A stretch of 32,000 nucleotides of DNA from NCBI GenBank assembly GCA_963666345.1, contig OY762721.1, forward strand, positions 3,661,258 to 3,693,257, in the 5' to 3' direction. Shown here one piece after another: positions 9,311-24,304 of the stretch. Position 1 is the stretch's first letter. Each line of letters opens with the position of its first letter. A program made the position numbers and the translations under genes. Below the pieces are notes generated by a model that was given only the letters and a program-made list of their open reading frames with translations, was not told the origin of the DNA and did no database searches. The stretch is from Desulfatiglandales bacterium (GTDB taxonomy: Bacteria; Desulfobacterota; DSM-4660; Desulfatiglandales; Desulfatiglandaceae).

Positions 9311-10510
9311 ATGAACCGGATGAAGACCATAGCCGTGGTAGGCACCTTTGACTCGAAGGGGGAGGAGCATCTCTTTTTAAAGGAGCGGATAGAGAAAAGA
9401 GGCTTTTCAGCCCTCACCATAAACGTGGGCACAAAAGGACCCGGGACCTTCAAGGCGGATATCGATCTGTTCATCCGGCTTGAAAAAGTGGACGGGCTTG
9501 ACCATGAAAGCAGAGACAGAGCCATCGCAGCCATGCTTCAAAGGGCAAAGGAGCTTGTAAGACAACTCCATGAAAGAAAGGAAATCTGTGGAATAATCTC
9601 CGCCGGCGGGGGCACCGGCACGCATCTGGGCACCGGCATAATGAGGGCGGTTCCGATGGGTGTTCCCAAGGTAATGGTATCTACTGTGGCATCAAGGGAT
9701 ATGTCGAAGGTGGTGGGTACCAGGGATATCACCATGATGCACAGTGTGGCTGACCTTCTGGGGGTAAACAGCATATCAGGAGCCGTGCTTGACAGGGCCG
9801 CGGCCGCGGTCTGCGCAATGACGGGTAACGGCTGGAGTCCGGGGATTGAAAAGAAAAGGATCGCGCTCACGTTTTTCGGTTTTATCACTCCGGCGGCTGA
9901 AATGATAAAGGAGCGGCTTGAGCGGCTTGACTACGAGGTGATCGCCTTTCATGCCAACGGCACGGGCGGCATGGCAATGGAGGAGCTTGCGTCCGAAGGC
10001 TATTTCAGCGGCATTCTCGATCTTGGGACACATGAACTGGCCGATGAACTGAAAGGGGGATACTGCTCCGGCATAGGGCCTGAAAGGCTTGTCCTCCCGC
10101 CGGGCATTGTTTTGCCGAGGCTCGTGGTTCCGGGGGGTCTTGACTGCGCGGTCCTTGAGTTTACAAGAGAAAAGATCCCTGAAAAATACAGGGGCAGGAA
10201 GATATTTTTCTATGATTTCCGTTCGGCCGTCCGTTTGAATGAAAAGGAGAGTCTTTTCATTGCCGCGCAGCTTTCGGAAAAATTGAACAAGTCACCTGCC
10301 GGGACAAGGGTTCTTGTCCCCCTGGATGGATGGTCAGAGGCGGACAGGCAGGGAGGTCCTCTTTACGACCCGGCATTGAGTGGGCTTTTCCTTGATAGAT
10401 TGAAGCGGACCCTTGATCCTGAAATAGAGGTCATGGAGGTCGGGATGCATATTAATGATCCTGCGTTTGCGCGGCTTGCCGCCCGAATCATGCATAAGAT
10501 GATCGGATGA
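9311..10510 (+). CDS. UPF0261 / Tm-1-like ATP-binding domain protein, paralog 1
   Basis: Start set at ATG 9311, with GGGGAGG 5-10 nt upstream (MNRMKTIAVVGTFDSKGEE...). Central SAGGGTGTHLGT and VPKVMVST motifs are typical of the family. The ORF-track start at 9236 lies in the pseudogene flank. Confidence 0.7.
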   Translation: MNRMKTIAVVGTFDSKGEEHLFLKERIEKRGFSALTINVGTKGPGTFKADIDLFIRLEKVDGLDHESRDRAIAAMLQRAKELVRQLHERKEICGIISAGGGTGTHLGTGIMRAVPMGVPKVMVSTVASRDMSKVVGTRDITMMHSVADLLGVNSISGAVLDRAAAAVCAMTGNGWSPGIEKKRIALTFFGFITPAAEMIKERLERLDYEVIAFHANGTGGMAMEELASEGYFSGILDLGTHELADELKGGYCSGIGPERLVLPPGIVLPRLVVPGGLDCAVLEFTREKIPEKYRGRKIFFYDFRSAVRLNEKESLFIAAQLSEKLNKSPAGTRVLVPLDGWSEADRQGGPLYDPALSGLFLDRLKRTLDPEIEVMEVGMHINDPAFARLAARIMHKMIG

Positions 10511-10529: not shown

Positions 10530-11051
10530 TCAGGCATCATGCGCTTTCCCCTTGGATTTTAAGCCCTGTTTGAAACTTTCCCAGAACTCCTTGTCATTGT
10601 CCTGCCACGCAGCCCCGAATCTTCTTTCAAAATAGGATGAAGGCAGTTTCTCCTGCCATTTTCCCCAGGGGTCTTCCCCCTTTTTCTTGGCCTCGATAAT
10701 GTCATTTATAAAAGAGGCGATATCCGCGATCTCATCTTTCGGTATATAGGAGTCTGCACCCTGTTTTATCGATTTTACCAGGTTGTCGGGCGTAAACGCA
10801 TGGGCTGTGAGCATGACGGCCGTTGTGCCTTTACTGTTGCAGATTTCAAGAAGTCGGTAACCGTTGACCCCCATGATATCAAGCACTGCTACGTCGAATT
10901 CCTCTTTTTCAAGCAGTTCCCGCGCCTCCTCAAACGTGGAGGCACTGACCACGTCACACATGAATAAAAGTTCTTCCAGTACCTGCAGAATGTCAGGTTC
11001 ATCATCGACTATCAAGACCCTTTTACCGTCAAGCAAAGCGGTTTCAGACAT
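10530..11051 (-). CDS. Single-domain response regulator (CheY-like receiver) with about 50-aa Trp-rich C-terminal tail
   Basis: VDDEPD acidic pocket, VAVLDIMG phospho-acceptor Asp context, YIPKDE conserved Lys. No recognisable DNA-binding output. GGAGGA RBS. Confidence 0.8.
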   Translation of the reverse strand: MSETALLDGKRVLIVDDEPDILQVLEELLFMCDVVSASTFEEARELLEKEEFDVAVLDIMGVNGYRLLEICNSKGTTAVMLTAHAFTPDNLVKSIKQGADSYIPKDEIADIASFINDIIEAKKKGEDPWGKWQEKLPSSYFERRFGAAWQDNDKEFWESFKQGLKSKGKAHDA

Positions 11052-11196: not shown

Positions 11197-12144
11197 TTAC
11201 CTCCTTCTTGCAAGTATCCTGTTCATGAGCGCCCCTATCCCCTGGGGCGTCATGTCTTTCGGGGTCAGCTTGAGGAGTATGTCCACAAATGCCCGGGCCG
11301 CCATTGAAAGATACTGCCCCTCCAAAAAGGCGATGCTCACGTCAAGAAATATCCTGCCTCCTTCAAGGGGCACGGTTGAAAGGCTTTTCCCCTTGAGCTC
11401 AAGGGCGACCGCCTCCTTTACCAGAAAGGAGATCCCTTCTCCCCTTTGAACCAGCTGTTTGATAAATTCCGTGTTGCTGGTATCCATGAGTATGTCGGGT
11501 GTGCAGCCGTTTCGAGTGAAAAGCTCGTTTACCAGCCTCCTAGTGCCTGATCCGGTCTCCTTCATGATGACCGGCTCTCTGGCCAGATCCCTTATGGAGA
11601 CGGTCTTTTCTGCGGCCAGCGGGTGATCAGGTGCGAGTATCACGACCAGCTCTTCCTCGCTGAAGGGAATGAAACGGACATCGGGGTTTTCCTCCGCCTT
11701 GGCGATGATGGCCACTTCGTTTTTGAAGTCCAGCAGGCTGTGAATCATGTCAAGGGAGCTTCCCTCATCCAGGTAGATCCTAACCTGAGGGTAGGTTTCA
11801 TGAAAACCGGTAAGAAGATAAGGCATGAAGTAGCGGGCATAGGTCTTTGTCGTTCCAAGCCTCAGGACTCCCCTTTTGAGTTCCTTCATCTCCTCTATCA
11901 GGTGCTCAAGGTCCCTTTCATAATCAAATACCTTTACGGCGTATTCAAAAAGTGTCTTACCCTCGTCCGTAAGATATATGCTGCGGCCCTTTCTCTTAAA
12001 GAGCTTGAAGCTGCAGTGTTCTTCAAGGAGCCTTATCTGGGCGGTAACGGCCGGCTGGGTGATGTATAGACTTTTGGCTGCAAGGGTAAAACTGAGGTGC
12101 CTTGCTGTGTGGTAAAAGACCCTGAGTTGATTGAAATTGATCAT
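11197..12144 (-). CDS. LysR-type transcriptional regulator
   Basis: N-terminal wHTH (LRVFYHTARHLSFTLAAKSLYITQPAVTAQIRLLE) plus a substrate-binding domain, 315 aa. Divergent from the pps-like genes. Confidence 0.9.
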   Translation of the reverse strand: MINFNQLRVFYHTARHLSFTLAAKSLYITQPAVTAQIRLLEEHCSFKLFKRKGRSIYLTDEGKTLFEYAVKVFDYERDLEHLIEEMKELKRGVLRLGTTKTYARYFMPYLLTGFHETYPQVRIYLDEGSSLDMIHSLLDFKNEVAIIAKAEENPDVRFIPFSEEELVVILAPDHPLAAEKTVSIRDLAREPVIMKETGSGTRRLVNELFTRNGCTPDILMDTSNTEFIKQLVQRGEGISFLVKEAVALELKGKSLSTVPLEGGRIFLDVSIAFLEGQYLSMAARAFVDILLKLTPKDMTPQGIGALMNRILARRR

Positions 12145-12169: not shown

Positions 12170-12214
12170 TAAGCAAAATTTATGGATCAGGGTGATGCAT
12201 AAGTAAAATTTATG
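12170..12214. promoter_or_regulatory. Two copies of TAAG(C/T)AAAATTTATG spaced exactly 30 bp; candidate LysR boxes (ATAA-N7-TTAT fits T-N11-A)
   Basis: Read directly at 12170-12184 and 12200-12214, 26-70 bp upstream of the LysR gene start, on the divergent side. Confidence 0.45.
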
Positions 12215-12472: not shown

Positions 12473-12521
12473 GAAGTGACTAAAGTGACTAAAGTTGGAA
12501 GTGACTAAAGTGACTAAAGTT
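12473..12521. repeat. Tandem duplication of GAAGTGACTAAAGTGACTAAAGTT (period 25 bp), giving four GTGACTAAA 9-mers
   Basis: Read directly. 9-mers start at 12476, 12485, 12501 and 12510, in the 686-bp LysR/pps intergenic region. Confidence 0.8.
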
Positions 12522-12830
12522 ATGGAGTCGCTTCGCTCCGCTTTCTTAGAGGTTCCATAGCCCTTTGAATCTGGGTTTTTTAGGCATTGCAAAGTCCGGA
12601 AGAGCAGGGTGTTTATTTTTCCCGTCCAATTGCAGAATGCAGTTTTCCTTAAACGTAAGAACCGGAATCAAGAAAGATAAAAAGAAAAAAACAGGAAAGA
12701 GGAGCCCCTCCACCTGACCCCCCGGCCCCTCAAATCCCTGTCCCCTATTTAAGATTTATTTCCCCGGTTTGGGAGTGCATCGACGCTCCACGCAACCATT
12801 CCAACCAACAACATCACAGGAGGGGGAAAA

Positions 12831-14690
12831 ATGGCAGATCAAAAGGCAGGAAGATTTCCGGATCCTCACGATTTCAAGGTGCCTCCCGGCCTGGAGGGCT
12901 GGGAAGAGATGTATCCATCGCACTATCTTTTTTCAAAGGAGAGGGGGGAATGGGAAAAGCAGCAGTTCTGGTATCAGGACAAGATTCATGCCCCTGAACC
13001 GGTGCCCCCCCTGGACCTGATCTTCCAGGAGGCCTGGCAGATCTCCCTTTCACAGTACACCACAAGGGTGTTCTGCATCCCCCCTGCCCAGGGAATCGCC
13101 CAGAGGATGGTCGGGTGCTACATGTACATCTGTGCCATCGCGCCGCCGCCCGATAAGGTTATCGGAGAAAAGGCGGCCCATTTCGAAAAGCGCGTTTTCT
13201 ACGTGTTCGAGCACTATGACGAACTGTGGGACAAGTGGCTCAACAAATTCAAGGCCCTCGGCAACGAGATGTCCGCGGTTGAGATCCCGGAGCAGATGCC
13301 CAAATTCGTGCCTGAAGATCAGGTGCTTCCCGCGCCCAGGGGCTACTACATATCCTATGACGTGATGGAGGCATTCGACAGGCTCGTAAACATGATGTTC
13401 AAGGGATGGCAGTACCACTTCGAGATGCTTAACCTCACTTATCTTGCCTACCTCATGTTCGGCGACGTATCAAGAAAGCTCTTTCCGGGAATCAGCGAGA
13501 GTGCCATCGGCAAGATGGTGGCAGGCGCCTATGTGTCGATGTTCAGGCCGGAGGAGGAGCTGTGCAGACTCGCAAGGCTAGCCTCTTCATCCCGCGGCGT
13601 TGCGGATATTCTGAAGACCGATATGTCGGTAGGGCAGAAGGTCTCCAAGCTTAACAAGATAACCGACGGCAAACACTGGCTGGAGGAGTTTGAGAAATCA
13701 AAGGACCCCTGGTTCTACGTGTCCTGCGGAAGCGGGTGGCTGCATCATGAGGGAAGCTGGATTACCAACCTTGAAATACCCTACAGCTATATAAAGGGCT
13801 ATGTGGAAAGCCTTGAAAGGGGCGAGAAGATCGAGCGCTCCCTTGACCAGATAGACAAAGAAAGGGACCAGATAGTAGAAGAGTACCGCAAACTGATCAA
13901 AACCGATGAAGACCGAAAATCGTTTGACGACGCCTACAAGACCATCCGGACCATATACCGGTACGCGGAGGATCATCTGTTCTGGGTGGAGCACTGGTTT
14001 CACACCATCTGGTATGAAAAGATAAGGAGATTCGGAAGCCTTCTCAAAGGAAACGGAATGCTCAACGAGGTGGACGATATATTCATGTTCACCCGCTATG
14101 AGATCCCGGAGATGCTGACCGAGCTTTCCACCGGCTGGGCCCTGGGAGTGGACATACCTTTAAGGGGCGATTTTTACAAGGCAAAGGCAAAAAAGAGGAG
14201 GAAGATCCTGGATGCTGCATCCGAATGGGCACCCACCCCCGCGCTCGGCGTACCACCCGAGGAGGTGGCGGAACCCTTCACGATCATGCTCTGGGGCGTG
14301 ACGACCGATAAGGTAAAGGAATGGCTCAAGGGTGTGGAGGTCCCGAAAGGAACTGAGATCAGCGAGATAAAGGGATTTGCGGCTTCGGCAGGGGCCGCGG
14401 AAGGTCCGGCCAGGGTGCTCAAGCTCTTAAAGGAGATCGTCGACATAAAACCGGGTGAGATTATCGTGTGCCCGTCGACCAATCCCTCGTGGGCGCCGGT
14501 GTTTACCAAGATCAAGGCGGCTGTCACGGACATCGGCGGGCTTACAAGTCATGCGGCCATAGTCTGCCGGGAATACGGAGTACCATCGGTCACGGGAACG
14601 GGAGTGGCCACATCCGTGATTAAAACCGGAGACATAATCAGGGTCGACGGAGACACAGGGCTGGTAACCATAGTGAAGCGGGCGCAGTGA
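12831..14690 (+). CDS. PEP-utilising-enzyme family protein with C-terminal swivelling phospho-His domain; phenylphosphate synthase alpha-subunit-like
   Basis: 619 aa (about 70 kDa). C-terminus GGLTSHAAIVCREYGVPSVTG carries the conserved T-S-H motif. No PPDK_N ATP-grasp domain; that is encoded by the next gene. GGAGGGGG RBS. Size and split architecture match Thauera PpsA and PpsB (70 and 40 kDa). Confidence 0.65.
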   Translation: MADQKAGRFPDPHDFKVPPGLEGWEEMYPSHYLFSKERGEWEKQQFWYQDKIHAPEPVPPLDLIFQEAWQISLSQYTTRVFCIPPAQGIAQRMVGCYMYICAIAPPPDKVIGEKAAHFEKRVFYVFEHYDELWDKWLNKFKALGNEMSAVEIPEQMPKFVPEDQVLPAPRGYYISYDVMEAFDRLVNMMFKGWQYHFEMLNLTYLAYLMFGDVSRKLFPGISESAIGKMVAGAYVSMFRPEEELCRLARLASSSRGVADILKTDMSVGQKVSKLNKITDGKHWLEEFEKSKDPWFYVSCGSGWLHHEGSWITNLEIPYSYIKGYVESLERGEKIERSLDQIDKERDQIVEEYRKLIKTDEDRKSFDDAYKTIRTIYRYAEDHLFWVEHWFHTIWYEKIRRFGSLLKGNGMLNEVDDIFMFTRYEIPEMLTELSTGWALGVDIPLRGDFYKAKAKKRRKILDAASEWAPTPALGVPPEEVAEPFTIMLWGVTTDKVKEWLKGVEVPKGTEISEIKGFAASAGAAEGPARVLKLLKEIVDIKPGEIIVCPSTNPSWAPVFTKIKAAVTDIGGLTSHAAIVCREYGVPSVTGTGVATSVIKTGDIIRVDGDTGLVTIVKRAQ

Positions 14691-14778
14691 TACGAATTTA
14701 ACCGGAAAGCCCCTTTCCCATTCAGGTCACTTTTTCGCTTCCTGTCTGTTGAAAGGGGCTTCTAGGTGAAAAGAGATC

Positions 14779-15849
14779 ATGGAACATATACTCGGTTTTG
14801 AAAGACTTGACAGGGGTTCCCTCGCCCTTGTGGGGGGAAAGAACGCGAGCCTGGGTGAGATGATAAAAAGCGGGGTCCGCGTGCCTCCCGGTTTTGCCGT
14901 TACAACCGACAGTTATCTTGGTTTTATAACAAAGACCGGTATAAAGGAGAAGATCTATGAGGCCCTCGCAGGTCTTGATCCTGAGGATGTGGAATCGCTC
15001 GACCGGGCAAGCGGCAAGGCGCGCGGGCTTATCATGGATTCATCCATGACAAGGGAGGGGAGGGATGCAATCGCAGGCGGTTATAAAACACTGTGCCGGG
15101 ATTGCAATAAAGATTACCTGCCTGTGGCGGTCAGATCAAGCGCAACGGCCGAGGACCTCCCGACCGCCAGTTTCGCCGGCCAGCAGGATACATTCCTCTG
15201 GGTCCTTGGGGCGGATAAGGTCATAGGCAATGTCCAGGCCTGCTGGGCAAGCCTGTTTACCCCCCGTGCCGTCAGCTACAGGATTAGGAACAAGTTTTCC
15301 CATGAAAAGGTACTCATAAGCGTCGGTGTCCAGAAGATGGTCAATTCGAGGAGCGCCGGTGTCATGTTTACCCTCAATCCGACCAACGGGGACCCTTCAA
15401 AGGTGGTCATAGAGGCAAGCTGGGGGCTGGGCGAGACGGTTGTTTCAGGTTCGGTTAATCCGGACAAGTTCGTGGTGGACAAGGTGATGCTGGAGATCAA
15501 TGAAAGGGACATATCCAAAAAGCATATAGAATGCCTGTATGACCCGGATGAAAAAAAGGTGGTCAACATCGAGGTGGAGCCGGAAAGACAGCAGAAATGC
15601 TGCCTGGAGGGCCGTGAGGTAAGGGAACTGGCCAGACTGGCAAAGGAAATAGAGGTCCATTACGGATGCCCCATGGACATCGAGTGGGCCATAGAAGAAG
15701 ACGCGTCCTTTCCCGAGAACATATTTATCGTTCAGGCACGGCCCGAGACCGTCTGGAGCCGGAAGGAGTCAAAGCCCGTCATAGGGGCGAAGAGCGGCTA
15801 TCAGCTTTTGATGGAAAAGGCGATGACAAGGATAAAGCTGAGGACATGA
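14779..15849 (+). CDS. PEP synthase N-terminal (ATP-grasp, PPDK_N) domain protein; phenylphosphate synthase beta-subunit-like
   Basis: 356 aa (about 40 kDa). GGKNASLGEM and VAVRSSATAEDLPTASFAGQQDTFL motifs of pyruvate-phosphate-dikinase/PEP-synthase nucleotide-binding domains. Confidence 0.7.
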   Translation: MEHILGFERLDRGSLALVGGKNASLGEMIKSGVRVPPGFAVTTDSYLGFITKTGIKEKIYEALAGLDPEDVESLDRASGKARGLIMDSSMTREGRDAIAGGYKTLCRDCNKDYLPVAVRSSATAEDLPTASFAGQQDTFLWVLGADKVIGNVQACWASLFTPRAVSYRIRNKFSHEKVLISVGVQKMVNSRSAGVMFTLNPTNGDPSKVVIEASWGLGETVVSGSVNPDKFVVDKVMLEINERDISKKHIECLYDPDEKKVVNIEVEPERQQKCCLEGREVRELARLAKEIEVHYGCPMDIEWAIEEDASFPENIFIVQARPETVWSRKESKPVIGAKSGYQLLMEKAMTRIKLRT

Positions 15850-16063
15850 ATGAGATAAAATCCCCTTGTCCGATTAAGCTGGAGAAGAACCTTTTCAATA
15901 ATCCGGCATTCAGGGAAAACCAGGATAGAAGGATTTTGCATTTAAGGGTCATCTCCAAAAGAGTTGATTTAAATGAAGGAGTCTTTGCTCTTCTTATTCC
16001 TCGCTCAGTCCCACCCTTCGACAAGCTCAGGGCGGGTTCCCGGAAGGGGCCAAGGGTTCTAGG

Positions 16064-16273
16064 TATGGGAGGAAAACGAGTATAGAGTATGTGAGATTTC
16101 TCTATATTGCATATGGTTCAGTCTGTGAATCGGAAATTCGGGCCATGATATCAGCTGAATTGGGTTATTTGAAAGAAGTAAGGCTTCAGGAATTAAGGGG
16201 GAAAATCGGGGATGTCGAGACAATGCTCAAAGCGTTGATCAAATCCCCGGAAAGAAAACCCTCGAATCCTTGA
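16064..16273 (+). pseudogene. 5'-truncated four-helix-bundle protein gene fragment (C-terminal about 70 codons only)
   Basis: YGRKTSIEYVRFLYIAYGSVCESEIRAMISAELGYL... is homologous to codons 55 onward of the 8701..9102 gene. Upstream, homology is replaced by an 18-nt terminal-repeat-like sequence (16046-16063). Confidence 0.7.
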
Positions 16274-16321
16274 CTCCTGGAACCCTTGGACCCTTTCTCC
16301 CAACTAATTGGGAGAAGAACC
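16064..16321. repeat. Right arm of about 250-bp inverted repeat (pairs with 8691-8940)
   Basis: Same hand alignment as the left arm. The arm carries an 8-nt insertion (TTGACTCC) relative to the left arm. Confidence 0.85.
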
Positions 16322-16359
16322 GCATTTTTAACCGGCAGAAAGGGAGGTAAACAGGATCG

Positions 16360-17760
16360 ATGAAAGACATGAGAGATTTTATCCAAGAGGCGGAAGCCCG
16401 GGGCCTGCTCCACAGGATAAAGGCCGAGGTGGACTGGAACCTTGAGCTGTCCCATATCGCAAAACTTAACGAGGAAAACCAGGGACCGGCACTGCTTTTC
16501 GAAAACGTCAAGGATTACGACTCCCCAGTCATCACGAGCGTGTGCACCACCACCGAAAGACTTGCCCTCATAATGGGCATGCCGGGGGAATCGTCCTTGG
16601 TGGACATCATGAGGATGTGGGTGGAGAAAAATGAAGACAGGATTCCCCCCAGATATGTGGACAATGCGCCGTGCAAGGAAAACATCATGATGGGTGATGA
16701 TGTGGATCTTTTCAGGTTTCCCGCGCCCAAGTTTTATCCGATGGACGGCGGGCGTTTTTTCGGTACCGCCCATTTCGTGGTCACAAAAGACCCTGATACC
16801 GGGTGGGTCAACCTTGGCACATACAGGCTCCAGCTCCTGGACAAAAATCATCTCGGAACCCAGTTCATAAAGGGAAAGCATGCGGATATCATGCTCAAGA
16901 AATACCAGAAGCTGAAGGAGCCGATGCCTGTTGCGGTAGTGGTGGGATGCGACCCGATACTCTTTCTGATGGGGGCCTCAAGGCTCTCGGCCTTTGAAAG
17001 TGAATATGATTTCGCAGGCTCCATAAGGGGTGAGGCAATAGATGTAATAAAGGCTGAGACAAACGACCTGCCGGTTCCGGCCACGGCCGAGATCGTGGTG
17101 GAAGGGGAGGTGGACGCGGACACATTCATGGACGAAGGCCCGTTCGGCGAGTACACAGGCTACTATTCAGGTGTGGGGACCGACCCGAGAAATTTCATAG
17201 ACGTAAAGTGCGTGACCCACAGGACAAATCCCGTGTTCTGGTCCACCACGGTGGGACGCGCGGTGACGGACACCCACATGACCATGGCGCTTACCTACGG
17301 CGCGACCCTGTGGCAGCAGCTTGTCGCCATGAAAATCCCCGGCATAAAGGCGGTCTACTGCCCGCCCGAGGGCTCGGGACGCTTTCTTGCCATAATTTCC
17401 ATGACCCAGATGTATCCGGGACACGCGGATCAGGTCCTTACCGCCGCCATATCGACCGAGATGGGCGCCTACGGCCTCAAGACCGTTATCGTGGTGGATG
17501 ATGATATCGACCCGTGGGATATATCAAGGGTCATGTATGCGCTCAGCTTCAGGTTTCAGCCTAACAGGAGTCAGGTAATAAAAAGAGGGAGGTCCACCCC
17601 GCTTGATCCTTCTCTTCCCTTAAACGCAAGGGAGATCACAGGCAGGCTCCTGCTGGACGCCACCATACCGTATGACTGGAAGGAAAAGCCGATCCCTATT
17701 GAGCTTGATCCGGAGCTGGTGGAAAAGATAAAGGGCCGATGGTCTGAACTGGGGTTTTAG
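16360..17760 (+). CDS. UbiD-family prFMN-dependent (de)carboxylase
   Basis: 466 aa. N-terminus MKDMRDFIQEAEARGLLHRIKAEVDWNLELSHI...GPALLFENVKDY is typical of UbiD-family enzymes. GGGAGG RBS. Size matches the phenylphosphate carboxylase alpha/beta-type subunits. Confidence 0.85.
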   Translation: MKDMRDFIQEAEARGLLHRIKAEVDWNLELSHIAKLNEENQGPALLFENVKDYDSPVITSVCTTTERLALIMGMPGESSLVDIMRMWVEKNEDRIPPRYVDNAPCKENIMMGDDVDLFRFPAPKFYPMDGGRFFGTAHFVVTKDPDTGWVNLGTYRLQLLDKNHLGTQFIKGKHADIMLKKYQKLKEPMPVAVVVGCDPILFLMGASRLSAFESEYDFAGSIRGEAIDVIKAETNDLPVPATAEIVVEGEVDADTFMDEGPFGEYTGYYSGVGTDPRNFIDVKCVTHRTNPVFWSTTVGRAVTDTHMTMALTYGATLWQQLVAMKIPGIKAVYCPPEGSGRFLAIISMTQMYPGHADQVLTAAISTEMGAYGLKTVIVVDDDIDPWDISRVMYALSFRFQPNRSQVIKRGRSTPLDPSLPLNAREITGRLLLDATIPYDWKEKPIPIELDPELVEKIKGRWSELGF

Positions 17761-17777
17761 ACAGGGGGAGAATCGAT

Positions 17778-19439
17778 ATGAAGCCTATCCGCTATGATCC
17801 GGAAGAGATAGAGAAAAATTTGAGGGAGGGTTTCTGGGATAAGACCATCCTGCCCGACTTTTGGGAGAAAAACGCCAGGCTGTGGCCTGACAGGGAGGCC
17901 CTTGTCGATTCCCTCGGATCCAGGCTGACCTGGGCCGAGGCCGCGCAGAGGATCGACAGGATCGCGTTCGGGCTTATAAAGGAGGCGGGTGTTAAGAGGG
18001 ATGACAGGCTCATGGTGCAGCTTCCTAACTGCGTGGAGCAGGTCCTTGTTCGCCTTGCCTGTGAAAAGGCGGGGGTCCTTTCCATACCCGAGATGACCAC
18101 CTTCAGGCAGACGGAGCTTGCGGACATCGCAAAAAGGACGGACGCGGCGGGCATGGTAATTGCCAGGAGCTACAGAAACTTCGACCACCATGAAATGGCA
18201 AGGGAACTTCAGGCTCAGCTGCCGGGACTCAGGCACATCATAGTGGCGGGGGACGACGTGCCTCAAGGCTGCATCTCGTTGAACGAGATCATGGCTCACC
18301 CATATGAGAAGGAGTTCGACATCCTGGAGCTTATCGCCAGGAAGCTTGACGCGGTGGAAGAGGTGGGCTTTCTTATCACGACCACCGGCACCACAGGCCT
18401 TCCGAAGCTTATCGAGCACAGGATAGCGGCGCGCGAGATCTGGACCGCAAGATCGCATGTGAAAAACTGGAAGCTCGGCCCTGATGACTGCGTGATCGCC
18501 ATCGCCCCGCTCGCAGGGGCCGCCGGGGGCACGCCCGCCTATGTTACGGCACCGGTGGGGGGAGCCAAAATCGCCCTTGAATACCAGTACAGGGGAGAGG
18601 AAACGCTCGCCTTCATGGAACAGGAGCGGGTCACGGTGATCGCCCTTGTGCCGACCCAGCTCGCAAGGCTGCTGGAACTTCCCACCGGCAAATATGACCT
18701 TTCATCTTTAAGGATAATAAAGACCGCCGGAGGGTACCTGCCGCCCCCGCTTGCAAAGGAGGCCCAGGAGAGGTTCAACTGCCCCATCCTCGGGACATAC
18801 GGCACGCAGGATACAGGTTCCATATCAGGGGTGCCGATCGACGCACCCGAGGACCTGAGAAACTTCACCGTTGGAAGGCTTCATCCGGGAATAGAGATAA
18901 AGATACTGGATGATGAGGGAAACCGGGTTGAAAAAGGGGGCGTGGGCACCCTATGGTTCAAGGGGCCGGGAAATTCGATCGGTTATTACAGGGATATAGA
19001 TAAAACCATGAACGAGGCCTTTGACAGGGACGGTTTTGCCACGCCCGGAGACCTTGTGGAGCTTATGGATGACGGTTATATCAAGATCATGGGCAGGAAG
19101 AAGAACATCATCATAAGGGGCGGGCAGAACATATATCCAAGGGAGATAGAGGACTATCTGCTGGCGCACGAAAAGGTCACTAACGCGGCCGTCGTTCCCA
19201 TGCCTGATCCTCAGATGGGTGAGAGGGCGTGCGCCTTTGTCACGGTCAAAAAGGGAGAGATGTTCCAATTCGAGGAGATGATCGCATATCTCAAGGAAAA
19301 GAAGATCGCTCCCTTTAAGCTGCCTGAAAGGCTCGAGGTACTCGACGCCCTTCCCCTGGTCGGGGAAAGCGGCAAGATAAACAACAAGGAAATGGTCAGG
19401 ATCATAACCGAGAAGCTTAAGGAGGAGGGGAAGATCTAA
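17778..19439 (+). CDS. AMP-binding acyl/aryl-CoA ligase (adenylate-forming enzyme)
   Basis: 553 aa with the ITTTGTTGLPKL AMP-binding motif and GDLV...GRKKNIIIRGGQNIYPREIE. 18 nt after the UbiD stop, with a GGGGGAG RBS. Confidence 0.85.
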   Translation: MKPIRYDPEEIEKNLREGFWDKTILPDFWEKNARLWPDREALVDSLGSRLTWAEAAQRIDRIAFGLIKEAGVKRDDRLMVQLPNCVEQVLVRLACEKAGVLSIPEMTTFRQTELADIAKRTDAAGMVIARSYRNFDHHEMARELQAQLPGLRHIIVAGDDVPQGCISLNEIMAHPYEKEFDILELIARKLDAVEEVGFLITTTGTTGLPKLIEHRIAAREIWTARSHVKNWKLGPDDCVIAIAPLAGAAGGTPAYVTAPVGGAKIALEYQYRGEETLAFMEQERVTVIALVPTQLARLLELPTGKYDLSSLRIIKTAGGYLPPPLAKEAQERFNCPILGTYGTQDTGSISGVPIDAPEDLRNFTVGRLHPGIEIKILDDEGNRVEKGGVGTLWFKGPGNSIGYYRDIDKTMNEAFDRDGFATPGDLVELMDDGYIKIMGRKKNIIIRGGQNIYPREIEDYLLAHEKVTNAAVVPMPDPQMGERACAFVTVKKGEMFQFEEMIAYLKEKKIAPFKLPERLEVLDALPLVGESGKINNKEMVRIITEKLKEEGKI

Positions 19440-19655
19440 CGGCCTCCCCGGTTCGGGAATATAGCCGTGGTGTAGGGTTATATGTTATAGGTTATTTGAA
19501 AATGAGTGAACAGAAGCCTTGTCTTCGGCTGCGTACTCTAGTTTTCCGGCAATCTTTCTAACCAATAACGAACAACCAGATGCCTAACCAGTGTGCCATT
19601 TTAAGGAAACGTGGGCAAACGAGTGGTTGCTCCATGCCAGGAAGGAATCCCCCCC

Positions 19656-20252
19656 ATGACCCATGACGGCAAAAGGCCCCTGATCCTCTTTGTATGCTGC
19701 GGAAACAGGGAAAGGAGCGTGATAGCGGAAAACCTTTTTAAAAAGATGCTGAAAAAGGGATATCCTGATTTATCAGACCGGGTGGATGCGGCCTCAGCCG
19801 GCATATTCCCCAGGTCATATTTAGAGCATGCAGGGGAAAACGGGGTCTTTTTCGAAGAACCTTTTTTTTCAAAAAAGGCCAATACCTATGCCGTGGATTA
19901 CCTCCTGAAAAAGGGGATAGACGTAGCATCATACAGGTCAAGGCGGATTAACTCAGGTCTTGTCACAGATGCCCTTCTCATACTTGCCGTAGATCGGGTG
20001 ATAAGGGATGAGATCCTTTTCTTTTATCCGGAGGTCCAAGGCAGGGTCCATACCCTCAGGGAGTTCGTGTTCGGCCCGGAAGGGGACCTCGATATAGGTG
20101 ATCCCATGAAACTGCCCGTTGTTGATAAGGACACCGGCGCCTGGATATGGCCTGACGAATACCCCGTGAGGTATATAAAGGAGATCGAGGAGAGCCTTGA
20201 AAAGGGAATGGTCAAGATAGTGGCTTACATAATGAGCGAGGGGATGGATTAG
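19656..20252 (+). CDS. Low-molecular-weight protein-tyrosine-phosphatase-like (LMW-PTP/ArsC fold) protein with internal insertion and C-terminal extension
   Basis: P-loop LILFVCCGNRERS fits V-C-x-G-N-x-x-R-S (CX5R-S). A DIGDP Asp-Pro loop is present. The only two Cys are in the P-loop, so there is no ArsC-type redox Cys pair. Start set at ATG 19656 (AGGAAGG upstream); the GTG at 19611 is possible. Confidence 0.65.
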   Translation: MTHDGKRPLILFVCCGNRERSVIAENLFKKMLKKGYPDLSDRVDAASAGIFPRSYLEHAGENGVFFEEPFFSKKANTYAVDYLLKKGIDVASYRSRRINSGLVTDALLILAVDRVIRDEILFFYPEVQGRVHTLREFVFGPEGDLDIGDPMKLPVVDKDTGAWIWPDEYPVRYIKEIEESLEKGMVKIVAYIMSEGMD

Positions 20253-20253
20253 A

Positions 20254-21492
20254 TTGAATAGAACAAAGGGTGCGATCATAGTTCTGGTAATGGCTGAGGA
20301 AAAATGGGTGGAGGCGAATTTTTTCCGTGCTCAAATTACCTCTCTCGGCCACAGGGCCGAGATCCTTGATATGGGCCTTACCGGAGGGCCTGCCGGGCCC
20401 TGCGCTATCGGACGGGAGGAGGTGATAGCGGCAGGCGGCACAGGCGTGGACGAGGCCTCTCTTATAACGGACAGGGGCAAGAGGATGCCCCTTATGATAA
20501 AGGGGGGGAGAAAAAAGGTAAAAGAGCTTTACGAACAGGGAATGCTCACAGGGGTCGTGAGCCTTGGGGGGACCACGGGGACCCAGATGGGGACCTCCAT
20601 CATGAAGGCGCTTCCATTCGGCGTTCCCAAGCTCGCGGTGTCAAGCACGGCATCGCTTAAGGGGTTCGCCTCAAGATACCTCGGTACATCGGATGTCTCG
20701 CTCATGCACACGGTGGTCGAGATCGCGGGGCTTAACCGGTTCATGAAAAACGCGCTTGCACGCGCGGCAGGGGCCGTGTGCGGCATGGTGGAGGGGGGGC
20801 TCAGGGAGCCTGTCGCGCCGGAACAGGGGGGTGTGAGTCCGGTTGTAGCCATGACCCACTTCGGGCCGTGCGAACATTGCGCGGTAAGGGTTCGAAATCT
20901 ACTTGAGGAGCGCGGTTACCAGGTGGTGGGTTTTTCCGCTGCCGGTATCGGGGATCGGGCCATGGAGGAGATAATCGAATCGGGCGGCGTCTTTTCTGCG
21001 GTCATAGATCTTGCCACGGGCGGGGTGGGTGAGGAACTGCTGGGATTTGCCAGGGCAGCGGGGGCCTCAAGGCTTGAGGCGGCGGGAAAAAAGGGGATAC
21101 CGCAGGTGATTGCCACAAGCGGGGTCAATTTCGGCTCCCCCTGGAAGTACAGGTACAAGCCTGAATATGAGTCAAGAAAAAAAATTGAGTATGACAGAGC
21201 CCGCACCTTTATAAGGCTCTCGCAAGACGAGTTGGTCCGGGTGGCGACCGTCATGGCGGAAAAGTTGAACCGCGCAGCGGGTCCGGTGAGGGTGGTAATC
21301 CCGCTTGGCGGGTGGTCATCCGTTGATAAGAAGGGAAGCTTCTTTTATGATGGTGAGGCGGATCAGGTATTTGTCGAGACGCTGGAAAGGGAATTGCGGG
21401 ACGATATCGAGGTCAGGGAAGTGGACGCGGACCTTGAGACGGATGAATTCGCAAAGGTTATCGTGGATTCGTTTCTGGAAATTATTTCGTAG
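20254..21492 (+). CDS. UPF0261 / Tm-1-like ATP-binding domain protein, paralog 2 (divergent N-terminal motif)
   Basis: 412 aa. Central SLGGTTGTQMGT and VPKLAVSST align with paralog 1. The N-terminal GTFDSKGEE of paralog 1 is replaced by VMAEEKWVE. The TTG start at 20254 is 1 nt after the upstream stop and is uncertain. Confidence 0.65.
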   Translation: MNRTKGAIIVLVMAEEKWVEANFFRAQITSLGHRAEILDMGLTGGPAGPCAIGREEVIAAGGTGVDEASLITDRGKRMPLMIKGGRKKVKELYEQGMLTGVVSLGGTTGTQMGTSIMKALPFGVPKLAVSSTASLKGFASRYLGTSDVSLMHTVVEIAGLNRFMKNALARAAGAVCGMVEGGLREPVAPEQGGVSPVVAMTHFGPCEHCAVRVRNLLEERGYQVVGFSAAGIGDRAMEEIIESGGVFSAVIDLATGGVGEELLGFARAAGASRLEAAGKKGIPQVIATSGVNFGSPWKYRYKPEYESRKKIEYDRARTFIRLSQDELVRVATVMAEKLNRAAGPVRVVIPLGGWSSVDKKGSFFYDGEADQVFVETLERELRDDIEVREVDADLETDEFAKVIVDSFLEIIS

Positions 21493-21537
21493 AGAGAATC
21501 AGGTGCCGGTTGCCTGATAAACGCGCGGGGGCCTTAC

Positions 21538-21921
21538 ATGGAATACAGGTTCATGACGCATGAGGGGTGCTATGATCTTGTGGCGAACGCAAGACTGGTG
21601 GGAGACGATCTGCTGGTTGCCATATGGGGCGGAGACAGGCCCCATATCGGCGCTGTATCCATGGCCCAGCCCAGGGCAAGCCTCAGGGACCCTTCAAAGC
21701 TGAGTGCTACTGCTTCCGTGTTCACGTATGTGGGGCACAAGGAGGACATTCTCGCAAAACCCGCTTCAGAGACCCTGGCCTCCGCCCTGAACAAGAAGGT
21801 GGTGGTAACGGCAGGTATCCACTGGGATGATATGGAAGAAAAGGGCATTAAAAGGGTGATAAAAAACTGTGAGATTCTGATCGGGATGATTGTAAAGGAG
21901 TTTTCATCTTCAAAAAGCTGA
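21538..21921 (+). CDS. Small UbiD/UbiX-associated protein, possibly LpdD-like prenylated-flavin chaperone
   Basis: 127 aa, WGGDRPHIGAVSMAQP motif. Sits immediately upstream of ubiX. The family assignment comes from memory of LpdD-type proteins and from context only. Confidence 0.35.
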   Translation: MEYRFMTHEGCYDLVANARLVGDDLLVAIWGGDRPHIGAVSMAQPRASLRDPSKLSATASVFTYVGHKEDILAKPASETLASALNKKVVVTAGIHWDDMEEKGIKRVIKNCEILIGMIVKEFSSSKS

Positions 21922-21950
21922 CTCTGTCAGGCGTGGGGGATGGTTCTAAA

Positions 21951-22523
21951 ATGAAAAAAAGACTCATTATCGCGATAACCGGCGCAAGCGGTGTGATTTA
22001 CGGTGTGAGGATGCTCGAACTGATAAGGGAACACGGCTTTGAGACGCATCTTATAATATCAGAGGCGGGCAAGAAGAATATCGAGATCGAGACAGGCTTT
22101 AAGCTCAGGGATATAAAGGCGCTTGCCGATTACAGCCATGAAAACATGGACGTGGGGGCCCCGCTTGCAAGCGGCTCGTTTCTGACGGGGGGTATGGTGG
22201 TGGTGCCCTGTACCATCAAGACCCTGTCAGGGATTACCAATTCCTACAACGACAACCTGATCGTGAGGGCGGCAGACGTCACGTTAAAGGAGGGGCGCAA
22301 GCTGGTGCTGGTTGTAAGGGAGACCCCTCTTCACAAGGGGCATCTGAGACTCATGACCATGGCGGCCGATGTGGGCGCCCACATACTTCCCCCGGTCCCA
22401 TCCTTTTATAACAAGCCTGAAACCATCGACGACATAATCAATCAGACCATAGGAAAGATCTTCGACTACCTGGGCGTGGAGCACGATCTGTTTGCCCGCT
22501 GGGGAAGATATGACTCATGCTGA
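21951..22523 (+). CDS. ubiX: UbiX-family flavin prenyltransferase
   Basis: MKKRLIIAITGASGVIYGVRMLE... and VVPCTIKTLSGI motifs. About 190 aa. Start set at ATG 21951, with GGGGGA 11 nt upstream. Confidence 0.9.
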   Translation: MKKRLIIAITGASGVIYGVRMLELIREHGFETHLIISEAGKKNIEIETGFKLRDIKALADYSHENMDVGAPLASGSFLTGGMVVVPCTIKTLSGITNSYNDNLIVRAADVTLKEGRKLVLVVRETPLHKGHLRLMTMAADVGAHILPPVPSFYNKPETIDDIINQTIGKIFDYLGVEHDLFARWGRYDSC

Positions 22524-22537
22524 ATAAATGCTGATAG

Positions 22538-22849
22538 TCATAAAAACAGACTTGCAATGGATGGGACCCGCTCGGCAATTTTGACCGCTATTTGACCGAG
22601 CTTTTCTATCTGCGCCTTGAGTTGTGCCTGAGACAGGTTGACCCTTGAGGCCTCCTTTACAACGGTGATGAGTTCATCATATTTTTCAAGGTCCGTGGTA
22701 TCCGGCGTGATTGTGTCCACCTCGGCACGCGAGAGACCTTCCAGTTCGTTAAGCTGATCCTTGTATATCCCCTTAAATACCTCCCGTCCCTTTTCAAGGG
22801 TTTCTTCAAGGTCCGCCTCAAATCCTTCAAGATCAAAATCATCCGACAT
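22538..22849 (-). CDS. Hypothetical small acidic protein
   Basis: 103 aa, Asp/Glu-rich N-terminus. Starts 3 nt after the stop of the upstream gene 22853..23602, implying co-transcription. No recognisable motif. Confidence 0.5.
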   Translation of the reverse strand: MSDDFDLEGFEADLEETLEKGREVFKGIYKDQLNELEGLSRAEVDTITPDTTDLEKYDELITVVKEASRVNLSQAQLKAQIEKLGQIAVKIAERVPSIASLFL

Positions 22850-22852
22850 CTC

Positions 22853-23602
22853 TTATCCCTCCTTATTGCCTTTGCCGATATTATCCTTAAGTTCGTTTAT
22901 TGCCGACTTTAGATCAATGGCAAACTCCTCCGCCTTTTTGATCTTGTCATCGGCCTTCTCGGCCGTCTCAACAAGGGTTCCGATCCTCTCGGATGCCCGG
23001 GCCAGCGTGTCGCCGATATCCTTTCCGAGGTCTCGTTCAACCCCGATCTTATCCAGCAGTTCTGCCTGTGTCTCATGCACCTTTGCAACAGAGGAAAGAT
23101 GACCGGTCACAATCGAATTGGCATAATGAATCTGCTGGTAGGCCCGGTCTATGGAGCCTGTCACCTCTTTTTCCTGCGCCTTGAGCGGGTCGAGCAGCTC
23201 ACTGCGCATCGCCTCCACATCTTGTCTGATCTTGCCCACCATTATAGCCATGCCCTTTAGGACATTTTCCTGAAGTTTCGGGGAGGCATCCGGCTTGAAT
23301 GCAGCGTTTATCGCAAGAAGTAGAGACCTCTTCCTTTCCTTTTCCTTCGAACTTCTTGCCAGTTCCCACTGGCGGTTCATGGCGTTTCCGATCTGAAAGG
23401 GTGCGTAAACGTCGTCTATGAAGCGGTTCACGTCACGCCTCATCCTTGTGAAAAATAACTGTGCAAGCTCTCGATGTGCCTTGTAAACCACCGTAAGGTC
23501 CCGGCCGACCGTTGCTGAAAGCTCAACCGACTCCTTGGGAACCTGGGCGCATGAGCAGAAAATGAGGAAGGATATAAAAATGAATATCGACCTGCGTGGC
23601 AT
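22853..23602 (-). CDS. Hypothetical exported or lipoprotein-like coiled-coil protein
   Basis: 249 aa. N-terminal hydrophobic signal (MPRRSIFIFISFLIFCSCAQ) with a non-canonical Cys-containing end. The rest is helical and charged. GGAGG RBS. Confidence 0.55.
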   Translation of the reverse strand: MPRRSIFIFISFLIFCSCAQVPKESVELSATVGRDLTVVYKAHRELAQLFFTRMRRDVNRFIDDVYAPFQIGNAMNRQWELARSSKEKERKRSLLLAINAAFKPDASPKLQENVLKGMAIMVGKIRQDVEAMRSELLDPLKAQEKEVTGSIDRAYQQIHYANSIVTGHLSSVAKVHETQAELLDKIGVERDLGKDIGDTLARASERIGTLVETAEKADDKIKKAEEFAIDLKSAINELKDNIGKGNKEG

Positions 23603-23668
23603 CTCAATTCCTCCTTTTGTGGTGCTTCAAAAGTTGTGTTCAACTGTTAGGCATGATCGGGTAAAATC

Positions 23669-24079
23669 CTATTTGTGCGCGAATGCCCATGAAAAAGAGA
23701 TGCCGAATTCTTCCTTTCCGCCCACCCTGACCGCCGTTAGAAAGGCGGAGGCCAACCACTTTTTCATGCCCGCCTTGGTGACAAGGTCGCTGTAGAACTT
23801 GGCGTCCACACGCTTTTTTTCAGGGTCATTGCCCGGGTCCCCGTAGGCGTAACAGAGGTCATGGGGCAGGCAGCATTTATAGGTGATATCCTTCCAGTCA
23901 CAGCCGGTAAAAAGACCCATTACCCTGTCGGGAAGCATGGAGCAGCCATCAAAGGTCCAGTCTTTGTAGTCGTCCGGTTTCGATTCGATCCTGTCAACCA
24001 GGTAATCGAGATCAAAATGGCGGCACAGCTCAAGTGCCGCGCGAGCGTTCATGACCTCTCCTATTTCAGGCAGATCCAT
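23669..24079 (-). CDS. Phospholipase A2-like protein (CCxxHDxCY motif)
   Basis: 136 aa. YKCCLPHDLCYAYG matches the secreted-PLA2 catalytic His-Asp signature CCxxHDxCY. An upstream FDGCSMLPD could be a Ca-loop analogue. No signal peptide is seen. The assignment is motif-level only. Confidence 0.45.
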   Translation of the reverse strand: MDLPEIGEVMNARAALELCRHFDLDYLVDRIESKPDDYKDWTFDGCSMLPDRVMGLFTGCDWKDITYKCCLPHDLCYAYGDPGNDPEKKRVDAKFYSDLVTKAGMKKWLASAFLTAVRVGGKEEFGISFSWAFAHK

Positions 24080-24304
24080 TTTCCCTCCTCTTGTTTCAAT
24101 AGCTTTTCAGCATGTCCGTTACCAGAACCAGGTTTGCCCTGGCAGCCATCTGAAATCGGTAACGGTCTGTCTTTTCAAACCCTGTTTCAGACTCAAGGTG
24201 GCGGCTTTCATTATCCCTGCTCGCTGCGGTCTGTTTGCAATGGCGTATGTCACATAAAAGTGAAAGTCCTTTTCCATCTCCAGCTCATTTCCGCCTCAGG
24301 GCCT

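Follow-up and report, generated by a model that had tools for sequence, protein, structure and literature searches.

The 32,000-nucleotide window analysed here (positions 3,661,258 to 3,693,257 of contig OY762721.1, from a Desulfatiglandales bacterium) carries two genes of the UPF0261, or Tm-1-like, family: paralog 1 at 9311..10510 and paralog 2 at 20254..21492. An earlier note on this DNA had picked out both, and both are indeed full length, with the PF06792 and PF23189 domains. Paralog 2, the main subject of this report, is a real, intact and strongly constrained member of the family, to which the kinase MarK also belongs. It lies in an operon for the phenylphosphate synthase/carboxylase pathway, in a slot that recurs in related operons, and both its nucleotide-phosphate loop and its C-terminal pocket are rewritten relative to MarK. 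Tentatively, at somewhat less than an even chance, it is proposed that paralog 2 acts as a specialised protomer that would serve the UbiD carboxylase by handling the phosphoryl group of the phenol/phenylphosphate couple.

Paralog 2 as an intact UPF0261 protein

The assignment of paralog 2 to the UPF0261/Tm-1-like family holds at the level of domains, fold and NCBIfam subfamily. The protein matches PF06792 (E 9.9e-44, profile positions 3-172 of 176) and PF23189 (E 1.3e-64, profile positions 2-217 of 218), and its score of 357 bits against NCBIfam PRK02399.1-2 passes the cut-off of 335. A phmmer search gives Tm-1 as the best match (E 1.4e-50) and also recovers MarK (E 4.6e-47). The AlphaFold2 (AF2) model, with a predicted local distance difference test (pLDDT) score of 82.5, is matched by Foldseek to the Tm-1 structures 3WRW, 3WRX and 3WRY at template modelling (TM) scores of 0.73-0.80, and to the MarK structure 9MPY at E 6e-28 (~1e-28), arguing that the fold is intact. 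The gene starts with a TTG codon at 20254, which has a GAGGGG Shine-Dalgarno sequence 9 nucleotides upstream and lies 1 nucleotide past the stop codon of a gene for a low-molecular-weight protein tyrosine phosphatase (LMW-PTP) homologue; the identical 412-residue protein is called on metagenome contigs of the Joint Genome Institute (JGI). Close relatives number in the hundreds, and orthologues that are at least 63% identical extend from Desulfobacterota to Dehalococcoidia, with a mean column identity of 80%.

The two paralogs of the window align over their full length with 34% identity (E 7e-54). As described in the earlier note, they have a GG(G/T)TGT and VPK..VS(T/S) core in common, and the segment GTFDSKGEE of paralog 1 pairs with VMAEEKWVE of paralog 2. 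Paralog 1 (PF06792, E 1.3e-52; PF23189, E 4.5e-58; orthologues 63-70% identical) holds all of the MarK signatures, namely G-T-F-D-S-K, His219 and Asp282, with Tyr at position 304 (MarK numbering). Judged from their sequences, the paralogs are old, distinct clades and not the recent duplicates that the note had named as an alternative.

A rewritten nucleotide loop and pocket

The MarK protein of Novosphingobium aromaticivorans (Saro_1862, PDB 9MPY) uses ATP to phosphorylate the phenolic hydroxyl group of acetovanillone and related para-carbonyl phenols, and releases ADP (Hall et al., JBC 2025, PMC12624787). The family therefore no longer counts as functionally uncharacterised in bacteria, as the earlier note had it. 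Residues D14, T15 and K16 lie in the ATP site of MarK, and K16 is the counterpart of Tm-1 K20, the residue of Tm-1 that touches the alpha-phosphate of ATP-gamma-S; with an E16K substitution in this N-terminal loop, activity rises ~1600-fold (PMC12624787). Among MarK homologues, these three residues and the phenol-binding residues G195, H219 and H304 are >90% conserved, and the ATP and substrate sites are 25 Å apart (PMC12624787). The mapping of the ATP site onto paralog 2 is based on these statements, and it places the N-terminal segment in the nucleotide site, as the note had supposed.

In the AF2 model of paralog 2, the loop V-M-A-E-E-K-W sits between beta-1 and helix-1. It corresponds to the GT-x-D-(S/T)-K loop of the family, with MarK T12, D14 and T15 replaced by Met, Glu and Glu, and K16 kept as K17; of the kinase triad D14-T15-K16, which here reads E15-E16-K17, the Lys alone is kept. 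This replacement is rare in the family at large. In a set of 131 full-length proteins, each representing a 50%-identity cluster, Asp14 is found in 121, Thr15 in 115 and Lys16 in 119, and just two read EEK at the loop; Met12 and Glu15 occur in three representatives each, yet are recurrent in particular classes of the operons described below (classes a, c and d2). The universal residues of the family are nevertheless present in paralog 2: K16, E19, G103/104 (the GG loop), G121-P123-K124 (G-x-P-K), S128 and D143.

The earlier note had called the N-terminal motif degenerate, a description that does not fit its conservation. VMAEEKW is unchanged in alignments of 17 and of 36 sequences, and all seven residues are constant in 29 genes of related loci, where Val, Ala, Glu, Glu and Lys are each encoded by the full range of their synonymous codons. 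By this codon comparison, synonymous change in the 29 genes is saturated and the motif is under purifying selection. The retained Lys and the invariance of the motif under such selection argue that the site has been repurposed and is not dead.

The C-terminal domain is altered as well, a feature that the earlier note did not mention. The phenol-binding His/Asp pair at MarK positions 219 and 282, present as His in 110 and as Asp in 98 of the 131 representatives, is replaced by Ser and Asn in paralog 2, and these replacements are fixed across classes a and b. Of the MarK phenol-binding residues G195, H219 and H304, only the Gly is kept (as Gly204); His304 has become Tyr313, and His348 has become Val. 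Paralog 2 does carry the complete signature of classes a and b (G-P-C-E-x-C, Ser at 219, Asn at 282). From the published description of MarK, a structural argument can be made that the His-to-Ser and Asp-to-Asn changes would make room, and would remove a negative charge, at the expected position of the phosphate group of a bound aryl phosphate. The G-P-C-E-x-C segment was also considered as a CxxC-like metal site and rejected, because the Cys at its last position and the Glu are common in the family, which leaves only one Cys as new.

Since five of six signature positions fail, paralog 2 should not be annotated as a MarK-type kinase, although it may still work in a MarK-like way. A neighbor-joining tree places the EEK proteins in one derived clade, nested within a larger clade that keeps S-T-L-D-T-K, and one intermediate reads A-A-L-D-T-K-W. 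As far as these sequences trace it, the tree shows that class a arose once from D-T-K ancestors and that its loop was rewritten after His219 and Asp282 had become Ser and Asn. Class a genes of different phyla are intermixed in the tree.

Decay of a functionless duplicate is effectively refuted by these data. It has in its favor the departure from the family motif and nothing else, and against it stand the intact reading frame, the confident fold, orthologues conserved across phyla, a motif that varies only synonymously, and homologues that are expressed and induced in Desulfatiglans anilini (see below).

A UPF0261 slot in phenylphosphate operons

Relatives of paralog 2 were collected with a motif scan at one genome per species, which gave 184 relatives, and synteny was read from the best 80 loci. 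All 80 are syntenic, with the gene order PpsA, PpsB, UbiD, (receiver), ligase, (LMW-PTP), UPF0261, (LpdD), UbiX, where brackets mark genes that are not always present; they come from Desulfobacterota, Dehalococcoidia, another Chloroflexota genome and Bacillota. The reverse sample consisted of 40 metagenomic loci anchored on a PpcB-type UbiD gene, each with at least 4.5 kb of downstream sequence. A UPF0261 gene lies within 6 kb downstream in 39 of the 40, with or without a ligase gene, so the random distribution relative to UbiD loci that the earlier note had set up as a refutation does not apply. Paralog 2 itself occupies this slot, downstream of a PpcB-type UbiD gene and upstream of (LpdD)-UbiX, in the company of PpsAB. 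Operons of this kind belong to bacteria that degrade phenol and aniline as strict anaerobes. In 14 of the 40 operons the slot protein is present and the ligase absent, and one further locus (L027), likewise without a ligase, comprises no more than a dikinase, a divergent UbiD and a class-a-like UPF0261 gene. The common denominator is thus the dikinase plus the PpcB-type UbiD, and not the ligase or UbiX.

The slot proteins were grouped in this analysis into five classes by the loop and by the pair of residues that align with MarK 219 and 282: VMAEEKW with Ser and Asn defines class a, STLDTKG with Ser and Asn class b, AMLDEKK with His and Asn class c, ANLDTRG with His and Asp class d1, and GMLDERE with His and Asp class d2. 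The d1 and d2 lineages (L089-L168; for example L098 11437, L105 6832 and L089 6419) occur in operons that lack the ligase, and have Arg at the MarK Lys16 position with His219 and Asp282 kept. Class a goes with one type of ligase, 66-83% identical to that of the window, and class b with another (43-60%). The hcrABC genes adjoin 16 of 34 class b operons versus 0 of 13 class a operons.

The cultured Desulfoferula mesophila (AP028679, L084) has a class b operon in which the UPF0261 start overlaps the ligase stop and the UPF0261 gene is followed by NUDIX, CBS, UbiX, HcrBCA and ARMT1-like genes. There the NUDIX reading frame overlaps the stop codon of the UPF0261 gene, and NUDIX homologues lie near LysR in about 10 other class b loci. 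The CBS protein, which is PpsC-like, and ARMT1/DUF89-like phosphatases recur beside UPF0261 genes. The stretches concerned are L084 11244-12473 and 17174-18100 and L081 11356-12204. At another locus (L083 5785-11233), a gene for a divergent, Hcr-like molybdenum hydroxylase of three subunits is followed immediately by a paralog-1-type gene, and then by LysR and the pps operon. The domain fusions found in the family representatives involve only PEP-hydrolase, GNAT, cNMP-binding and TIR domains, and none of them bears on the paralog 2 clade.

The position of the slot, almost always directly upstream of (LpdD)-UbiX, might suggest a part in supplying or maturing the UbiD cofactor, either by providing dimethylallyl phosphate (DMAP) for UbiX or by maturing prenylated flavin mononucleotide (prFMN) anaerobically together with LpdD; prFMN maturation without oxygen is an open question. 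This is distinctly unlikely. The known chemistry of the family targets the phenolic hydroxyl, and where UbiX is encoded elsewhere (L002, L021, L027) the UPF0261 gene stays with the ligase or UbiD. The NUDIX protein of D. mesophila, whose function is predicted, could supply DMAP from dimethylallyl diphosphate, and no tie of the family to other UbiD families turned up, though no systematic search for one was made. The prFMN-maturation role suggested in the earlier note thus finds no specific support in an operon of the phenylphosphate synthase/carboxylase pathway.

Pairing with a canonical paralog

A canonical UPF0261 gene (D-(S/T)-K loop, His219) lies near class a in 9 of 11 well-flanked loci and near class b in 3 of 24 (Fisher p 1.4e-4; neither this nor the co-variation statistics below are phylogenetically corrected, and many of the loci are fragments of metagenome-assembled genomes, with many class a loci short). 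The divergent and canonical forms thus co-occur systematically, and the canonical partner is drawn from differing clades according to phylum (paralog 1, paralog-1-like, and a Dehalococcoidia 'p2-prime', three clades in all). This enrichment supports a division of labor between the paralogs. LMW-PTP genes are found only beside class a or c (10 of 31 loci, versus 0 of 49 for class b; p 2.7e-5).

The earlier note had read the two genes as an active/inactive pair. The pairing part of that proposal is borne out by the co-occurrence, and the inactivity part is contradicted by the invariant motif. A catalytically dead scaffold or pseudoenzyme that stabilizes or regulates paralog 1 would account for the alteration of both MarK-type signatures and for the canonical partners enriched near class a. 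However, a former active-site loop would be expected to drift, and this one is invariant and keeps Lys16 along with the universal residues; moreover, class a lacks a nearby partner in 2 of the 11 well-flanked loci and in L027. The scaffold is accordingly given only a slim chance, a shade below that of a cofactor role.

Co-inheritance with the ligase

In loci with both paralogs, the correlation of distance matrices is 0.74-0.78 between paralog 1 and class a proteins and 0.76-0.78 between paralog 1 and the ligase; with UbiD it is 0.23-0.49, even though the UbiD gene lies between the two paralogs in the window. Over all loci, the mirror-tree correlation of the slot protein is 0.83 with the ligase and 0.45-0.54 with UbiD, Pps and UbiX. 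In Dehalococcoidia, four loci (L003, L007, L014 and L017) are modules of just three genes, for a canonical UPF0261 protein, a type-A ligase and a class a protein. They have no UbiD, Pps or UbiX gene within 7-10 kb, and their neighbors are short-chain dehydrogenases/reductases (SDRs), major facilitator superfamily (MFS) transporters and a 4Fe-4S protein.

These observations raise the question of whether paralog 2, together with paralog 1, acts on the phenolic hydroxyl of 4-hydroxybenzoate or 4-hydroxybenzoyl-CoA, or else works on the ligase itself, as a binding partner or regulator, and takes no direct part in carboxylation. Such a link would explain the co-variation of the trio, the Dehalococcoidia modules, the overlap of ligase stop and class b start in D. 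mesophila, and the fact that the ligase or LMW-PTP gene is the left neighbor in nearly all class a and b loci. It also suits the preference of MarK for para-carbonyl phenols, a class that includes 4-hydroxybenzoyl thioesters. This reading was favored first, and was downgraded once 14 of the 40 UbiD-anchored operons and L027 proved to have the slot protein without a ligase. In addition, the correlation may mirror mere co-transfer of neighboring genes, and the His/Asp pair with which MarK engages the phenolic hydroxyl is absent from paralog 2. A ligase-centered role is now considered unlikely, while keeping a larger share of the probability than the cofactor and scaffold roles.

A related and more speculative possibility is that paralog 1, the rewired paralog 2 and the type-A ligase carry out an ATP-dependent, molybdenum-independent removal of the para-hydroxyl group, replacing 4-hydroxybenzoyl-CoA reductase. 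In such a scheme, 4-hydroxybenzoyl-CoA, itself a para-carbonyl phenol, would be phosphorylated on its oxygen, and the phosphate would be expelled when benzoyl-CoA reductase reduces the ring. The reductive dehalogenation of halobenzoyl-CoAs is a known parallel for a leaving group that is lost during ring reduction. The absence of hcrABC beside class a operons and its presence beside many class b operons is compatible with this scheme, as are the modules of ligase plus two UPF0261 genes and a BamB-type reductase cluster, which lies downstream of one class a operon. It is nonetheless a long shot.

The proposed role of paralog 2

The proposal that paralog 2 handles the phosphoryl group for UbiD can be stated as follows. 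The aromatic ring would lie in the C-domain pocket, and the phosphate in the remodelled N-domain site. The partner would be the canonical paralog 1, in a putative heterodimer that is made probable by the dimeric state of both MarK and Tm-1, and the translationally coupled LMW-PTP is probably a partner too, with the unit being inherited along with the adjacent ligase. Transfer could run in either direction, from ATP to phenol or as removal of phosphate from phenylphosphate. Paralog 2 would thereby supply the handling of phenylphosphate that Thauera aromatica obtains from PpcD/PpcC. With both of the catalytic signatures of MarK altered, it is unlikely to act as a MarK-type kinase on its own. The ATP-dependent carboxylation role put forward in the earlier note is supported in this broad sense only, by the pathway to which the operon belongs.

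Several observations weigh against the proposal. The tightest co-inheritance is with the CoA ligase and not with UbiD, and the four Dehalococcoidia loci hold a ligase and two UPF0261 genes with neither UbiD nor Pps close by. The slot proteins differ at catalytic positions from one operon to another (DTK, DTR, DER, DEK and EEK in the loop; HD, HN and SN in the pocket), and so a single common chemistry is not obvious. A UPF0261 partner is apparently not always needed, since the UbiD of D. anilini alone converted phenylphosphoamidate. Finally, the roles assigned to the slot proteins are drawn from sequence and genomic context, with the short class a loci and uncorrected partner statistics noted above.

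Could paralog 2 instead be a phenol kinase that works by itself and forms ADP, a low-affinity enzyme that is cheaper to run than the AMP-forming PpsAB? There is a precedent in MarK, which replaces the PpsAB-type dikinase AcvAB/HpeHI, with ~25% of genomes having both kinase types (PMC12624787). Such an enzyme would ease the cost of phenol entry, which amounts to ~4 ATP equivalents and which a sulfate reducer affords in a manner that is unclear (PMC6114531, PMC7500099). The idea is plausible for paralog 1, which has every MarK signature, but paralog 2 lacks T12, D14, T15, His219 and Asp282, and redundancy fails to explain the presence of the slot protein beside PpsAB in 39 of 40 operons. For paralog 2 its probability is small, on a par with that of the cofactor role. 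The reverse kinase reaction, in which phenylphosphate and ADP would yield ATP and so recover energy, was also considered and is unlikely, because the phosphoryl-transfer potential of phenylphosphate is probably too low if it has to drive carboxylation as well.

Relation to known systems

Paralog 2 resembles MarK in its two-domain UPF0261 fold, in Lys16, the Gly-rich loop and G-x-P-K, and in its placement in a catabolic operon with the logic of phosphorylating a phenol and then carboxylating it. The two proteins share only 28-29% identity, however, and differ in the loop and phenol-site residues. The host of paralog 2 is an anaerobe, its carboxylase is UbiD with prFMN and not AcvCDE/HpeCBA, and its gene accompanies a PpsAB dikinase instead of replacing it. 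The neighbors typical of MarK (the AcvCDE/HpeCBA carboxylase and the AcvF/HpeD phosphatase) are not found; UbiD, UbiX, LpdD, ligase and LMW-PTP genes stand there instead.

Tm-1 is the tomato resistance protein against tomato mosaic virus (ToMV), and Lys20 of its N-terminal region (PDB 3WRV-3WRY) aligns with Lys17 of paralog 2. In contrast to paralog 2, which has no barrel, Tm-1 is fused to a PEP-hydrolase-like triosephosphate isomerase (TIM) barrel and acts by binding the viral helicase, and its G-T-x-D-T-K loop is not conserved in paralog 2. The window has no gene for a PEP-hydrolase-like TIM barrel (PF09370), in agreement with the earlier note. This partner is common in the family without being universal: MarK likewise lacks it, and PEP-hydrolase fusions occur elsewhere in the family (P0330, P0385).

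The PpcABCD system of Thauera aromatica (Schuhle and Fuchs 2004), as far as it is summarized in PMC6114531, provides the closest biochemical frame: a PpcB equivalog, PpsAB and UbiX are present in the operon of the window, and here too some component has to deal with the phosphate of phenylphosphate. No gene for PpcA, PpcC, the haloacid dehalogenase (HAD)-type PpcD or a second UbiD was found in the operon, which has UPF0261, LpdD and, in some loci, LMW-PTP genes instead. The fold of PpcD is unrelated to UPF0261, and paralog 2 matches UPF0261 models only and neither PpcD nor PpcC, so that any equivalence would be functional and not by descent.

Desulfatiglans anilini offers the nearest comparison with expression data. 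Its phe cluster (H567DRAFT_02050-02059) and ani cluster (03868-03872) share with the window a receiver, PpsB/A, UbiX, UPF0261, a DHB-AMP-ligase-like ligase and PpcB (PMC6114531, PMC7500099). The phe cluster differs in its class b architecture with hcr genes adjacent; because a search by length and molecular weight among the family matches gave no exact match to the D. anilini UPF0261 proteins, this class assignment is from architecture only. The UPF0261 gene H567DRAFT_02057 lies between ubiX (02056) and the DHB-AMP-ligase-like gene (02058), with ppcB (02059) next (Xie et al. 2020, PMC7500099 supplement), and its product has proteome abundances of 0, 5e7, 5e7 and 2.5e9 (PMC7500099). The last of these columns is presumably the phenol condition, since PpsA, PpsB and PpcB peak there. 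The second UPF0261 gene, 03869, lies between pasB and an acyl-CoA synthetase gene of the aniline cluster, and its product was found solely in the two columns in which aniline proteins peak, from aniline/4-aminobenzoate-grown cells (PMC7500099). The receiver homologue 02050 is induced by phenol (PMC7500099). Neither UPF0261 protein is discussed in the two papers (PMC6114531, PMC7500099).

The same papers describe the gap that such a protein might fill. D. anilini has no ppcC, its PpcD homologue went undetected, and extracts gave no measurable phenylphosphate carboxylase activity, which has never been obtained in vitro; the UbiD subunits, made recombinantly, act on phenylphosphoamidate and leave phenylphosphate unconverted (PMC6114531, PMC7500099). 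The ligase 02058, a homologue of the window ligase, rises about 15-fold in the phenol column, to 1.26e10. In the papers, 02049 is given as the 4-hydroxybenzoate-CoA ligase and 02058 goes unmentioned; a ligase of the window type is probably the real ligase of the pathway.

The operon and its surroundings

By its gene content, the operon is a cluster for phenylphosphate synthase, a PpcB-type UbiD, an aryl-CoA ligase and UbiX (Table 1). The plus-strand series from PpsA to UbiX is unbroken, with the LysR, receiver and paralog 1 genes upstream. Pfam and PDB matches confirm that paralog 2 lies between a phosphatase homologue and LpdD/UbiX-like genes, as the earlier note had described. The LMW-PTP homologue is called by JGI with 198 residues and is translationally coupled to paralog 2. 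In related loci, the type-A ligase gene is the immediate upstream neighbor of paralog 2 homologues, and the receiver gene lies between the UbiD and ligase genes in most of them. The best promoter-like site near LysR/ppsA is at 12236-12264.

Table 1. Features of the phenylphosphate operon region and residues of paralog 2, in window positions
Feature	Position	Strand	Basis
UPF0261 paralog 1, 399 residues, canonical MarK-like (JGI start 9320)	9311..10510	+	Pfam, alignment
Single-domain CheY-like receiver protein	10530..11051	-	domain search, synteny
LysR-type regulator, divergent from ppsA, conserved in cluster	11197..12144	-	open reading frame (ORF) calls, synteny
Phenylphosphate synthase alpha-like PpsA (PEP-utilizers mobile His domain)	12831..14690	+	Pfam, NCBIfam
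Phenylphosphate synthase beta-like PpsB (PPDK_N ATP-grasp)	14779..15849	+	Pfam, NCBIfam
UbiD-family carboxylase, PpcB equivalog (phenylphosphate carboxylase beta)	16360..17760	+	TIGR02724 502.3 vs 468.95; UbiD_N, UbiD, UbiD_C
AMP-forming aryl-CoA ligase, type A (DHB-AMP / cyclohexanecarboxylate-CoA ligase-like)	17778..19439	+	Pfam, NCBIfam
LMW-PTP / YwlE-like aryl or arginine phosphatase homologue, C-X5-R-S and D-P motifs kept	19657..20252	+	Pfam LMWPc, PDB 4egs, 4pic
UPF0261/Tm-1-like paralog 2, 412 residues, class a (EEK) slot protein	20254..21492	+	Pfam, NCBIfam, AF2/Foldseek, orthologues
Codons V12-M13-A14-E15-E16-K17-W18, nucleotide-phosphate loop (MarK C11-T12-Q13-D14-T15-K16-E17)	20287..20307	+	model, 29 genes, 131 representatives
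Codons G204-P-C-E-H-C209, C-domain pocket segment (~ MarK G195-T196)	20863..20880	+	G-P-C-E-x-C in classes a, b
Ser228 codon (for MarK His219, hydrogen bond to phenolic oxygen)	20935..20937	+	residue alignment
Asn292 codon (for MarK Asp282)	21127-21129	+	residue alignment
LpdD-like small protein	21538..21921	+	PF21758; PDB LpdD 8PZH E 1.3e-5
UbiX flavin prenyltransferase	21933..22523	+	Pfam, NCBIfam

The block from about 7400 to 25500 has a GC content of 0.50-0.57 and its flanks one of 0.40-0.44, a contrast that suggests that the phenol-operon block is a horizontally acquired island. The low-GC flanks encode a hisD fragment, TctCBA, a sulfatase, an SDR and a 3-hydroxyacyl-CoA dehydrogenase, and PIN/antitoxin, DUF6282, M29 and MgtC proteins. 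Past ubiX and within the high-GC block, four successive ORFs without a confident Pfam match lie on the minus strand at 22538-25531; they encode proteins of 103 residues, 249 residues and 136 residues (the last with a weak match to prokaryotic phospholipase A2) and a 408-residue membrane protein.

A sequence of ~260 bp in the gap between ppsB and ubiD (16062-16321) has an inverted copy, 88-96% identical, at 8691-8942, between a nitrilase gene and paralog 1. The two copies enclose paralog 1, the receiver, LysR, PpsA and PpsB (7.1 kb). The repeat was not found in the related loci, and neither it nor the surrounding intergenic region has an Rfam match; it could be an element resembling a miniature inverted-repeat transposable element (MITE), or a scar of recombination or inversion. 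A 79-residue JGI ORF at 15846-16085, which overlaps the ppsB stop, was considered as a gamma-like subunit and rejected, as it has no homologue in related loci and overlaps part of the repeat, so it is unlikely to be a gene.

Implications

The kinase chemistry of UPF0261 proteins is already known from MarK; what is new here is the tie of the family to phenylphosphate-carboxylase operons and the existence of slot classes within them. No paper in the searchable literature links UPF0261 to anaerobic phenylphosphate-carboxylase operons or describes such classes. The loop rewriting seen in these operons (EEK, DEK, DER and DTR) amounts to a natural series for studying the mechanism of UPF0261 proteins.

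The phenol clusters of strict anaerobes, which lack the gamma and delta subunits of Thauera, would, on the role proposed for paralog 2, have in the UPF0261 family a candidate for the missing part of phenylphosphate carboxylation. The only known chemistry of this family is the phosphorylation of phenolic hydroxyl groups, its genes are present in 39 of 40 of the operons sampled, and in the one organism for which proteomes exist, phenol or aniline induces its proteins. A gap in anaerobic phenol metabolism may in this way be narrowed to a short list of testable proteins, namely paralog 2, paralog 1 and the LMW-PTP homologue.

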